Source: Lama guanicoe
Lineage: Eukaryota
DNA length: 64,000 nucleotides
Assembly (NCBI GenBank): GCA_013239625.1
Contig: MU053881.1
Location: 2,108,001-2,172,000, forward strand
Reading direction: 5' to 3'
Part shown: piece after piece, positions 14,118 to 32,329 of the stretch
Layout: the number at the start of each line of letters is the position of its first letter
Numbering within the stretch: the stretch's first letter is position 1
Program-made: the position numbers and the translations under genes
The notes under the pieces: generated by a model
The model's database searches: none
What the model saw: only the letters and a program-made list of their open reading frames with translations
What the model was told of the DNA's origin: nothing

Positions 14118-14388
14118 CTGGTGCTTTAACTAGCAATTCCTCAGACTCAAGGGCAGGCCGGGGAGAGACTTCTGGAACCACAGGCACAGACAAGGTCAGC
14201 TGTGGCAACTCAGCATGTCCACCTCCAAGTTCTGACTGAGCCAAGGGCCCTTCCAAAAATGGAGCCTCCCTTTCAAGAACTGGAGGCTCTTCTTTGGTTG
14301 AAATCAAAGAATTCTCTTCCACCTGCTTGTTCTGAGCACTAGATCGACATCGGGCTAAAAGGCTTTCCTCTTCACAGCGCGAACTTAC
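14118..14388 (-). CDS. NSD1: NSD1 coding exon (exon 7 equivalent)
   Basis: VSSRCEEESLLARCRSSAQNKQVEENSLISTKEEPPVLEREAPFLEGPLAQSELGGGHAELPQLTLSVPVVPEVSPRPALESEELLVKAP; cttag| ... CAG|gtaaga; 271 nt. Confidence 0.97.
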
Positions 14389-16321: not shown

Positions 16322-16446
16322 CTTGTGCACCTGTTCCTGTACTTTCTTTTGTTTTTTCTTAGGGGCAAATATTTGATCATATTCTTCTGTATATTCCAGA
16401 AGCCACTTGCTTGGCTTCCTAAGGCGTTTCTTCTCTGTCCGCACAG
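16322..16446 (-). CDS. NSD1: NSD1 coding exon (exon 6 equivalent)
   Basis: (A)VRTEKKRLRKPSKWLLEYTEEYDQIFAPKKKQKKVQEQVHK; tttag| ... AAG|gtatgt; 125 nt. Confidence 0.97.
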
Positions 16447-27658: not shown

Positions 27659-30224
27659 CTGGTTCAGGGAGCTCAGGCTGAGGAGTCAAACTGGGAATTC
27701 CTGGCTCCTTTCCCATCTCTTCAATGCTGGCACTGGATTTATCACAAACATTCAACCCAGCTGAATTTAAGCAGCCAGCATGATTTGGATCTGTCAGTGC
27801 ACCCTCTAGTATGTTTGATGAAGGAGGAGGTCTCTGCTCTGGGAACTCATCTCCCTTCTTTACAGGGTCAGCAGGAAGCAAGACCCCAAAGGCACCCTCA
27901 GAGTTTTCTTTCTCCCTAAATCTGTTAGTGCGCTTACGAGGTTTAGTGCGCCTTTGGTTTATACGCTGCCACCGCTTTTTAGGCACCACTTGATTTACAT
28001 TATTGGGTTCTTCATTCTCACTGTTCATTTCAGAGTCCAGCTCTGGGCCTTTTCTGTTTTCAAAAGAGGAGCCTTTTTCAGGAATTTTACCAGGATCAGA
28101 CTGGTTTACTTTATTGTCAAAATTAACACTGGAAAATTGGGCACCATCCTCAGTTATTAAATGGCCCATTAATTTAAGGGGTTCTTCTTTACCAGGGTCT
28201 TCTGCCTCACCTCTGGAGGAGCCATTCTCTGAACCCTTACTCTCTCTGACTCCCTGCAATGCAGCCTCAAGAGCTACAGCTGGGAGGCGGTTCAGTTTTC
28301 TTTTGCGCTCTGTCTTTAAGGCTTTACGGTTCACTGTGTTCTTTCCCATCTGGTTTGCAAAACCATCTCGTAATTTGGATGATGGCTTTGATCGCCCACA
28401 ATTGCGCCTAGTGACACAGTTTGAACGATTTTTGCCAGAAGGAGGAAGGTCTCTTTTATCGGACACTAAGCTAGGGAGGGACGTAGACAGGTCCCCAGAC
28501 AGTGTAGAGTCACCCGCACTAGGGCTAGGACGGACTGGATCCTGAGCGCCATCTCCATTTTTTTCTGAATTGTGAGTGGAGCCACCTGAAACCAAGACCT
28601 TAGAAGCCCCTACAGGACTACTGGTAGAACAGTCCCCAAGACCAGGACTCCGATAAGAGACCAAATTTTGAGCAGTCATTAACCGTTGCTCCTTGGTCTT
28701 ACTATCATGCATGTCTTTCAACATCATTAGCAATGTACTAAATTTGTAGTCTGGTTCAATGGGTATATGATTCTGAGCAGAGGCAGAAGAAAAAAGTAAT
28801 GGTTTTGATGGCTTTGATGTTCCGGAGTCACTGACATCTTCACCTAAGGATCTATAAGAGAGCTCCTTCAACTCTGACAGAACGTGTTTCACCACTGCTG
28901 TTTCTATGTCACTCGAATCCCTGGTTTTCTCATGCATGTTGCTCAGTAGTTTTAGCCCATCCACTTTCGCACTTCTGGAAATGCTGGCCAAAGGAGAGCC
29001 TTTGGTATCAGAAGAGCAGCATTTCAAATTGCAGTCCTCATTTGCAACAGGAGGGTCTACCACAACTGGATTTTCTTTATGTTTGCACTTGATGCTTCGG
29101 ATCTTGGGCTGTTTGTTTTTTGAATGTAACAGAGCTTGATTTGTAGCCACACCTTTCATTAGTGAGTTCTCACTGGAAATGCTTGACGGTGTGCTGAATT
29201 TTGGAGAAAGACCATCATTTCTAAAATCCAACTGGGACTTTCGGACAAGAGTTGACACTTTAAGATCAGGGAGATTAACCTGAGACGTCTCAGTTCCAGG
29301 CTCTGCTGTCTTGGTACAATCCATTAAATGGTCTGAATGTGAATTAGTAACAAGGGACTTCTGCTTGCCTTTTATCTTAGTGTTTGTAGCAGTATACCTA
29401 GAATACTTTACCTTTTCATTTTTCTGCACAGGTAACATGTTCTCTGTTCTATCAAAAGCATCTGTAATTTCAATGACACAGTTATGAGACTCTGAACTAT
29501 GATCTACGGGATCCAGATCACTGCTCCCATCATCAGAAGTGGTACAGATACTAATGGAATCACTTCGCTTTTCTTCGTCACCTGCTCCAATGTAGCAGAG
29601 CTGCACTTCTGAACTACATACCAGACCTCGTTGGAGTTTCTTCTTCTCCCCAGAACGTTTAGAGATCAAGGCACCCTCAGATAAGCCCAGTAAAGAGTCA
29701 CAATTTGAAGTCTCAAATTCTTTCTTTGCAGTGTTTTTTGTACAAGAAGAAAATAGGAAACTTGCTGGGGCAGTGCTGGACCCTGTGAGGCTGTTTGCTA
29801 TCCTGGAAAGTTCATTAGAGGCTTGCTTATCAGACACATCTGCAGAAATAAAGTTCAGGCCAAGGTTCTCTGGAATCTTTCCCCTCCGTTCTTCTTTATG
29901 TGTTTCAAATTGCATGTGACCCTTTTTCACACTAGTCCTTTTTGGATTATCAGAGCTCTTTCTGGCTCGAGACTTAGCACAAGGTTTTTCCTTCTCATCT
30001 GCAGAATGTTCAGAGTCAAAAGCCAGAGATTTCAAGCAGCCATTAAGCAACAGGTCATGTTCTGATTCAGGATCGTTTGTACAGTCCTCAAATGGCATAT
30101 CCTCCTCACTGTCCAACTTGATCGAACTGGTGACACATTTTCGGTTCTTCGACCCTTTGGGAACATCATACTGCTCAGCAAGACCAACACTGGCTTCCCA
30201 CTTACTCAAAATTTTCTGAGGAAC
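27659..30224 (-). CDS. NSD1: NSD1 giant coding exon (exon 5 equivalent), contains nuclear-receptor interaction region
   Basis: ORF track 27645..30209 (854 aa) lies in frame; exon starts VPQKILSKWEASVG after tttaag| and ends PELPEP at CCAG|gtaagg; 2566 nt; FSTLL (FxxLL) motif at 28728-28742. Confidence 0.98.
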
Positions 30225-32156
30225 CTTAAATTAAAAAGAGGAAAAGATGATCACTTACCTAAGAAACGGAAGGGGAAACAGGGAGATGATCAGTGAACAC
30301 CTCTCAAATCAAAAGCTTTTCTAAGCCTCGTACTTCTGCAAGGAACTTTTACGGGACCAGAAGGTGGTTAACACTCACAGTTCACTCAGAGCTTAACGAA
30401 TGGGGATTCTCAGCACTACTTCTACCACTAAGATCTGTCACTGGAGAAAGACTGATCTTACAAACCCCTCGTTCTCCCTGCCATTAAAAGCACAAAAGAG
30501 TAGACCATAGATCAGACTACATTACATTACTAAATCAAGGAATAACCAGACCATTCCTACTTACCTTCCCAAACCTTAGAATAAAGGTTTATTTTCTTCC
30601 TGGTTTACAAAGGCCAAGCACTTGCTCAGTGGCATAAAAGAGAAAAAGCAAAAGGCTAAAGAAGATAAATGTGGGAAAACTAGGACTGGAGAAATGAACA
30701 GGTCAGACCTGCCCTAGAAGAACTGAAATTTGAAACTCTAGTTATCACCAGGGCCTTGGCTAGTCAAGATTCTTCTAAACACATTATGTACAATCTGGAT
30801 TATAACTAAGCAGTCTCCTGGGCTTAATCATGTGGTCCAGAGACACCAATACGCCCTTGATATGTAACAAATTACATATGCTCTTTTCTTGACTTCCTCA
30901 CAGCGTGAGAACATGGAGGCTCTGTGAAATACACCTAATTTTCCAGACTCTTAATCTCTCCCTGGCTTCATGTAATAGATATTAGCCAAGGTTCTAACTA
31001 TCAATTTATATTCACAAACACTTAAATACTTGTGAAACAGATGTTCTGCTGAGCATGTGAAAATCAGGTCACTAGATGGGTAGCCTTCTCTTATAAAGCA
31101 ATAAACTGATCATCTGGTTTATTTTACATAAAAACATACATTCATTAGTTCTCTGACTACAACCATAGTAATCAATTTTCCAACCTGAAAGCCCTAGTGA
31201 ACTTCTCTGAAAAGGGGGTTAACCTACACAGCTAAAGGCTTGACACAAGAACTGACACCTTCCCACCATCAACTGCCCAAAGGATTAGAAAGGATGCAGT
31301 TGGCCTCTGGTATCCTCACAACAGCACATACTAGCTGTCTCAGAGCATCAGCCTTATAACATATTAAATATTTATTTCTAATCTTCACAATAGTTCTACA
31401 AGGTACATATTATCAACGTTAGTTTCAGAGATGAAGAAACTCAAGTTAAAAACAGCAGGGACTGCATTCTGACTCTAAACTATCCTGGTTATAATTTTTA
31501 TGAAACAGTTAAAAAGTATTTGTACATAGAAGTATGAAATACCAACATAAGAGGAATTATTGTACCTTCTAGAACTGACTATAGAAGAGTAACAAAAGAA
31601 ATAAGCCAAAATTATACTCAACCAACTGTAACCCAACATCAAGCAAATGAAACAAAAATACAGTGTTTTTTATTAAAACATAACAGGTTTGAAACTGCAA
31701 CCTTAAGCATTAACCACACACAAGTCAAAACAACAAACATAACAAAGATGTTTAAAGCCTCATCTTTCTCATTTTTAAGAGAAATAATTAATCCCGAGTG
31801 AGAAGTAGAGTACTTCATCTGATGATTATCTTCTTCCTACATCAGATACAACCGAAGACGACTGGTCACGCCACTTTACACTGTCCCATCTAAGTGACAA
31901 GGCAAAAGTTAGCTGAAATCACTTCTCAAAAACTTGAGTATAAATATTTGGAAGGCTAGCCTTGCAAAAAACCTTGCTTCCTACCAATTTTCTCACCAAC
32001 ATCCTACTACTAAAGAACATAACTTACATTTCAAAAATATAATACTTCTTCCTTCGATTGATCCTGTACACCCTCCATTCCCTCTTCCCTACCCTTCCCC
32101 AAGAAGATAATTTGAGAGGCTTTCTTTAAACAAAAAAACAAAAAAACCAGTAATAC

Positions 32157-32329
32157 CTTATGCCTATATCCTTTTTCTTTCTGCTTCCCTCTTCTTCTAA
32201 GGACAGGTAGCTCTTCAAATTGATGTCTGCCTTCGAACATGACGATTGCTTTTCCTGCCACCCAGGCTCTCTCAGAAGGGTCTCCAAAGGCCTCCACGTA
32301 GTACTGTCGATAGGGCCTCCGGTTAGAAA
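32157..32329 (-). CDS. NSD1: NSD1 coding exon (exon 4 equivalent), PWWP1 continuation
   Basis: (V)SNRRPYRQYYVEAFGDPSERAWVAGKAIVMFEGRHQFEELPVLRRRGKQKEKGYRHK; acceptor tctctag| and donor AAG|gtatta; 173 nt, phase-compatible with exon 3. Confidence 0.97.

Follow-up and report, generated by a model that had tools for sequence, protein, structure and literature searches.

Locus and Exon Structure

The window analyzed here (the whole stretch of 64,000 nucleotides) belongs to a mammalian genome of 2.05 Gb and contains exons 3–12 of a gene read from the minus strand. The gene is named NSD1 on the basis of database matches, in which its exon-4 peptide is 100% identical over 57 amino acids to that of several mammals. 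The locus is single-copy in the genome, which rules out a pseudogene or a repeat as its origin, and none of the repeat finders marks a repeat at the position described below. NSD1 haploinsufficiency is the dosage mechanism of Sotos syndrome. The syndrome is named together with the gene in the literature (PMC12215727, PMC7347940).

Donor strength is expressed throughout as U1 pairing scores calculated for this analysis (matches out of 11 positions, and kcal/mol). By this measure the donors of exons 3, 4, and 6 are weak (−5.7 to −6.8), with that of exon 4 pairing at 6 of 11 positions (−5.7), and those of exons 5 and 7 are strong (about −11). Four of the six tabulated exons (3, 4, 6, and 8) end in AAG. 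The features of the locus are collected in Table 1.

TABLE 1. Features of the NSD1 locus around the 3′ end of intron 4, with exon 7 for comparison (positions in the window).
Feature	Position	Strand	Description	Basis
Exon 4	32157..32329	−	173 nt; ends CATAAG; own donor weak	Sequence, U1 pairing, database matches
Intron 4	30225..32156	−	1932 nt	Exon table
Second branch-like A	30294	−	Directly before first TGATCATCT; YTNAY match	Consensus only
First TGATCATCT	30284..30292	−	Palindromic TGATCA; branch-like A at 30290, 32 nt from upstream AG	Sequence; branch point by consensus only
Upstream pyrimidine tract	30261..30283	−	16/17 pyrimidines at −20 to −4	Sequence
Upstream AG (putatively latent)	30259..30260	−	Preceded by T	Sequence
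GTAAGT, donor-like hexamer	30253..30258	−	Overlaps second branch-like motif	Sequence
Second TGATCATCT	30245..30253	−	Branch-like A at 30251, 27 nt from real acceptor	Sequence; position kept in other mammals
Real tract and AG	30225..30246	−	15/17 pyrimidines; AG preceded by A	Sequence
Segment retained if upstream AG used	30225..30258	−	34 nt; 10 codons, then stop TAA	Translation in exon-4 frame
Predicted hairpin	30248..30292	−	45 nt; −8.6 kcal/mol; 11 pairs	Folding prediction
Exon 5	27659..30224	−	2566 nt (1 mod 3)	Exon table
Exon 6	16322..16446	−	125 nt; ends CAAG; target of exon-5 skip	Exon table
Exon 7	14118..14388	−	271 nt; begins GTAAGT; putative recursive (RS) exon, comparison case	Sequence, U1 pairing, literature

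The Upstream Acceptor Module

Two acceptor modules, each opening with TGATCATCT, had been described at the 3′ end of intron 4, the upstream one running into AG|GTAAGT. The sequence and all coordinates of the motif proved correct letter for letter, with the two copies of TGATCATCT at 30292–30284 and 30253–30245 and the upstream AG 34 nt away from the real exon-5 AG (30226–30225). The description of the module as duplicated holds in part: the 9-mer is repeated exactly and the whole modules, which were selected for their likeness, outscore all 1000 shuffles in alignment, but the similarity of the tracts by themselves stays at chance level, being equaled by 559 of 1000 shuffles. The spacing is 39 nt between the 9-mers and 34 nt between the AGs, and the homology does not run along the whole unit, as it would in a tandem duplication of an acceptor. 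An exact complex 9-mer is present twice in 29 of 3155 80-nt windows (0.9%).

Judged by consensus, the upstream acceptor appears to equal or surpass the real one (TAG after 16 of 17 pyrimidines vs. AAG after 15 of 17), and its AG is directly followed by GT after a tract, as in intronic recursive splice sites. Exon 4 joined to it rebuilds a strong donor, as had been proposed (8 of 11 positions, −11.4 kcal/mol). The donor rebuilt by joining exon 4 to the real AG is poor (5 of 11, −4.1), and the exon 4–5 junction thus lacks the RS-exon feature of an annotated junction that rebuilds a donor. Within the pre-mRNA, GTAAGT pairs with U1 like the true donor of exon 5 (−11.3 vs. −11.5). An intron of 34 nt between the rebuilt donor and the real AG is ruled out as too short to splice, the minimum being about 65–70 nt. 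The consequences foreseen for the message are borne out by the reading frames: retention of the 34 nt brings ten codons and a TAA in the exon-4 frame, a premature stop with later junctions far downstream of it, as at poison 3′ splice sites, and skipping of exon 5, at 1 mod 3, shifts the frame.

Elsewhere in intron 4, 340 nt before exon 5, a stronger donor-like site was observed at 30567–30557 (minus strand; 9 of 11 positions, −12.2 kcal/mol); the candidate acceptors for it give exons of 60–149 nt, all with stops in the exon-4 frame, a possible poison exon.

A Predicted Hairpin at the Intron End

The original prediction did not include the palindromic pairing of the two modules. As the core TGATCA is a palindrome, the two direct copies of TGATCATCT can pair with each other, and in the predicted hairpin they do so, with CCUG pairing with the upstream UAG|G. 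Predicted pair probabilities within the hairpin are 0.89–0.99; in a 400-nt context the mean pairing probability is 0.97 for the upstream TAG, and at 0.99 the real branch-like motif would be buried by the hairpin as well. Folding of 30320–30200 gives −25.8 kcal/mol and a z-score of −2.3, with 4 of 200 shuffles equally good, and among 10 acceptors compared (the exon-12 start being one base off) that of exon 5 gives the lowest folding z at either window size. The hairpin z-score depends on window size, ranging from −2.75 to about +0.6 overall and from −2.45 to +0.62 across seven further window sizes, and the hairpin is to be regarded as a lead, not a result.

Conservation

A bird-like contig recovered in a metagenome scan with an exon-4 query (L002) spans intron 4 (2008 nt) and keeps TTTAAG|GTTCCT at the exon-5 acceptor. 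It has no AG between −73 and −2, no GTAAGT, and no second module, and its intron end gives no folding signal (z 0.16); the upstream AG|GTAAGT is absent from this orthologue, which is represented by one contig. A metagenome scan for orthologous DNA with an exon-5 query returned 155 pattern matches, of which 0 were confirmed.

Five open reading frames (ORFs) on unspliced DNA of other mammals start in the intron exactly ten codons before exon 5 and cover the last 30 intron nt only, not the upstream AG. The read-through of the window is matched at 8 of 10 codons, start counted, by P0131 and P0136, and at 7 of 10 codons by P0132, P0138, and P0143 (closest to a bat protein). To judge from these codons, the downstream module keeps its length and the position of its TGAT in at least two other lineages, as expected if TGAT is the working branch point. 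The starts of P0131 and P0132 are ruled out as proof of a conserved upstream stop: they are uninformative because no further start in that frame is present within 17 codons upstream in the window, and the ORFs would begin at this position in any case.

Frequency of the Motif

A tract (at least 11 of 14 pyrimidines, a threshold chosen after the site was seen) followed by YAG|GTAAGT occurs twice in the 508,000 strand-bases of the window and its flanks, at the upstream site and at the start of exon 7, both in NSD1, and 0 times in each of five Markov shuffles. Genome-wide, a strict form with 12 pyrimidines, from which the NSD1 upstream site deviates by a single G, shows no enrichment (75 matches vs. 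89 in the reversed control), and a form fitted to the upstream site gives 106 vs. 75. Many of these 106 are near-identical, which suggests an interspersed repeat family carrying the tract and AG|GTAAGT. The strict double-acceptor form gives 1 match vs. 1 in the control, the single match (L023; G000:C5673:11526524-11526568) having a 46-codon open frame after its second AG. The loose double-acceptor layout gives 172 vs. 75, an excess that may reflect real splice sites and repeats; GTAAGT is present in 18 of the 100 matches listed (hand count). Base composition alone predicts ~170 such octamers per 200,000 intron ends. From this estimate and the counts against controls, the genome has other such sites by chance; the upstream site is unusual for one gene and is among the stronger examples, and genome-wide the motif is not clearly selected.

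Evidence on Use of the Upstream AG

The end of exon 4 is held by 129 of the 238 database proteins fetched. After it, 55 continue into exon 5 (many of these being gene models, or from birds and reptiles), 67 resemble read-through of intron 4, two continue into exon 6, and five have other continuations; among the spliced products the normal join dominates. None of the 129 contains the peptide encoded by the 34 nt, a negative weakened by the fact that protein clusters hide short NMD isoforms. A profile search with exon 4 over 1.84 billion representatives gave 77 matches and no 34-nt isoform, and of 11 spliced Logan/ENA entries nine are normal, two skip exon 5, and none is joined via the upstream AG.

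The two proteins in which exon 4 is joined to exon 6, with exon 6 in the shifted frame (P0109, from four contigs, and P0111, from two), both skip exon 7 too. P0111 lands on the normal exon-8 acceptor, and P0109 on an AG 63 nt inside exon 8 (12878–12877, minus strand), which, on the sequence, would fit re-splicing of an already spliced mRNA. Exon-5 skipping thus exists and occurs along with that of the putative recursive exon, which favors the original prediction; general splicing inhibition would give the same picture. The logic of the predicted splice switch holds (rebuilt donor, stop, frameshift, and exon 4–6 joins in two proteins), but the product of the upstream AG was found in 0 of 129 proteins.

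Other isoforms were observed at this exon boundary. Annotated short NSD1 isoforms in four mammals (P0106, P0107, P0108, and P0042) leave exon 4 into unmatched sequence and soon stop, and are distinct from the 34-nt product. In a lemming protein (P0144) exon 2 sequence is joined straight to exon 5, and in a human table exons 2 and 5 flank a single annotated intron (PMC6110456, S1); an isoform without exons 3–4 uses the normal exon-5 acceptor.

In human tissue, four NSD1 NMD events were catalogued by Lim 2020, three exon inclusions and one 271-nt skip (PMC7347940). Within the part of that catalogue available, which scored only GENCODE/RefSeq-annotated events at ≥ 3%, no NSD1 alternative acceptor or exon-5 skip is among the NMD events (PMC7347940). 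A cryptic NSD1 poison exon was validated, with a change of about 2% (PMC11632617). In the literature on NSD1 splicing, recursive splicing, and the exon junction complex (EJC), no paper on the upstream AG of NSD1 intron 4 was found, and none of the EJC papers listed connects NSD1 with re-splicing; supplements may bear on the question. The negatives on use of this AG carry weak, limited weight, coming as they do from protein clusters, gene models, and an annotated-only catalogue.

Exon 7 as a Comparison Case

Exon 7, preceded by a good tract, begins with GTAAGT and exon 6 closes with CAAG, so that a strong donor is rebuilt where the two are normally joined (8 of 11 positions, −10.6 kcal/mol; the own donor of exon 6 scores −6.8). 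This AG|GTAAGT was missed in the original prediction. From its sequence exon 7 appears to be a better candidate for a recursive exon or switch than the upstream AG of exon 5, as the same AG|GTAAGT stands at its real start and the mechanism would need no unused acceptor. The 271-nt skip catalogued as a human NMD event equals exon 7 in length (PMC7347940), and r.3922_4192del corresponds to exon 7, the skipped form being called an Ensembl NMD transcript (PMC12215727). No description of NSD1 exon 7 as a recursive exon was found in the literature searched on NSD1, recursive splicing, and the EJC. With a donor motif at its start and a catalogued human NMD skip, exon 7 is a firmer lead than the upstream AG.

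Interpretation

Located in the branch-point region of NSD1 intron 4, the upstream AG is, with better than even probability, a latent cryptic acceptor overlapped by a sequence resembling a donor, a leak and not a switch. Exon 4 is normally joined to the real AG, in the simplest case through the branch A at 30251, 27 nt before it; as this A lies downstream of the upstream AG, scanning from there would never meet that AG. The upstream AG would probably be further silenced by the local hairpin, in which the TGATCA copies pair and UAG|G lies in the stem. Rare use of this AG would yield a message 34 nt longer that is destroyed by NMD; alternatively, the rare product could re-splice past exon 5. We infer the working branch point, the folding of the hairpin in cells, and the silence of the AG, whereas the sequence, the reading frames, the predicted pairing, and the dominance of the normal join in database proteins are observed.

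In the regulated switch originally proposed, the upstream AG is used and the EJC blocks the rebuilt donor, so that the 34-nt product goes to NMD; without the EJC, exon 5 is removed by re-splicing to exon 6, and the two routes together tune NSD1 dose. The good upstream acceptor and the contrast between a weak native donor and a strong rebuilt one speak for this proposal, as do P0109 and P0111, which join exon 4 to exon 6 and skip the putative RS-exon 7, P0109 landing inside exon 8. The donor at the normal exon 4–5 junction is poor (5 of 11, −4.1), so that re-splicing at the normal junction cannot easily explain exon-5 skipping, and the catalogues are blind at this position, sites within 2 kb of splice sites having been dropped by Zhang 2018 (PMC6110456). 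The 34-nt product that the switch predicts in normal cells is, however, found neither among the 129 proteins nor in the available part of the Lim 2020 catalogue (PMC7347940). The double skip is equally expected from general splicing inhibition or from weak definition of a 2.5-kb exon, and the site is missing in the bird-like orthologue and predicted to be buried in a hairpin; a switch is thus considered unlikely. GTAAGT could instead act as a U1 decoy, a mode of repression known from other genes: it overlaps the real branch-like motif, and competition between U1 and U2 would weaken the exon-5 acceptor and cause a one-step skip, with the upstream AG unused. The near-equality of its U1 pairing to that of the exon-5 donor (−11.3 vs. 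−11.5), the bases it shares with the branch-like GTGAT, the non-consensus AAG of the real acceptor, and the existence of exon-5 skips are consistent with a decoy. Exon-5 skipping is nevertheless absent from the human NMD events in the available, annotated-only catalogue (PMC7347940), and the decoy is held to be quite unlikely.

Two further readings give the hairpin a function. If the real acceptor used the branch-like A at 30294, the predicted fold would hide both intervening AGs and shorten a 70-nt gap to about 25 nt, and melting would expose the upstream AG. The fold covers the AGs at −36 and −31 and begins 2 nt downstream of the YTNAY match, and of 10 acceptors that of exon 5 ranks lowest in folding z at both window sizes; on the other side, the z-score is fragile across seven window sizes, the hairpin has only 11 pairs at −8.6 kcal/mol, and a corresponding signal is missing at the bird-like intron end (z 0.16); this arrangement is considered very unlikely. 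In yeast, AGs lying between the branch point and the 3′ splice site and hidden by structure have reportedly been described by Meyer (2011) and Plass (2012). The hairpin could also gate a recursive site 34 nt before a giant constitutive exon: when it melts, exon 4 would be spliced to the upstream AG, and the EJC would decide between NMD and two-step removal of exon 5, coupled to RS-exon 7. Under such gating, also quite improbable, the dose of NSD1 would depend on EJC level at two points, and a haploinsufficient gene would gain oligonucleotide targets, at a site in the blind spot of recursive-splicing catalogues. Finally, GTAAGT could be the donor of a cryptic exon within intron 4 that is spliced to exon 6, exon 5 being too close. 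For such an exon, ending at 30259, candidate acceptors give lengths of 126 or 271 nt, but both have only 12 of 17 pyrimidines and bring stops in the exon-4 frame, and no such continuation is seen among the 129 proteins; a cryptic exon is hardly to be expected.

The sequence observation is confirmed, and the switch interpretation, coherent but unproven, is partly supported. A spare splice signal that would ruin the message if used is present, and it is probably a silent site. If silent, the site matters only as a latent one that variants near the exon-5 acceptor could unmask. If used, it would provide a non-productive splice route in a dosage-sensitive gene, with a geometry excluded by design from one genome-wide recursive-site screen (PMC6110456).

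Comparison with Known Systems

Recursive sites were sought by Zhang 2018 in introns > 5 kb, at > 2 kb from splice sites, with conservation and junction reads (PMC6110456). Like the NSD1 site, the ratchet points of that study have a tract followed by AG|GT, a branch-like motif 20–50 nt upstream, and a strong rebuilt donor; unlike them, the NSD1 site lies in an intron of 1932 nt with an acceptor 34 nt away, and the rest of the intron, spliceable from the rebuilt donor at a ratchet point, amounts here to 34 nt (PMC6110456). Table S1 of the same study has at least 11 NSD1 rows, with none at the end of intron 4 among the rows listed, a silence that is uninformative because the design of the study left out anything closer than 2 kb to a splice site (PMC6110456).

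RS-exons, defined by Blazquez 2018 through the annotated junction, make up 3.6% of human exons (n = 6,837; PMC6224609), and EJC-suppressed donors lie at or within 40 nt of exon starts (reviewed in PMC7355637). In EJC-repressed RS-exons a strong rebuilt donor competes with the downstream donor of the exon, which is skipped, and the same logic would apply here; RS-exons use the annotated junction, however, whereas NSD1 exon 5 would need an unannotated AG 34 nt upstream, and by sequence exon 7 fits the class and exon 5 does not (PMC6224609). The supplementary files searched of four studies contain no NSD1 entry, and fuller tables may exist (PMC6224609, PMC10156609, PMC10259345, PMC10809524). The intrasplicing model resembles the proposed NSD1 model in that an intronic acceptor is used first, followed by NMD or skipping, in introns < 5 kb, but intrasplicing removes the tract and at NSD1 the real tract stays (bioRxiv 10.1101/159350). 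NSD1 is not named in the available main text of that preprint or of a further study (bioRxiv 10.1101/159350; PMC13078869).

In yeast, used 3′ splice sites are more accessible than unused ones, and stems hide upstream AGs and shorten the effective distance, much as predicted at NSD1; AG hiding is shown in yeast, whereas the NSD1 hairpin is only predicted, and in a mammal (PMC10711555). The NMD 3′ splice site of SYNGAP1 is comparable in that the gene is haploinsufficient and an intronic acceptor ahead of the normal one introduces a stop, but that event was measured (47% under CHX) and is oligonucleotide-reversible, whereas none is listed for NSD1 in the available part of the catalogue (PMC7347940). 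The upstream AG of NSD1 would show RS-exon or SYNGAP1-type behavior only if used; as it lacks two features of intronic recursive sites as well as the junction that characterizes RS-exons, it is assigned to a known kind, the latent cryptic acceptor.
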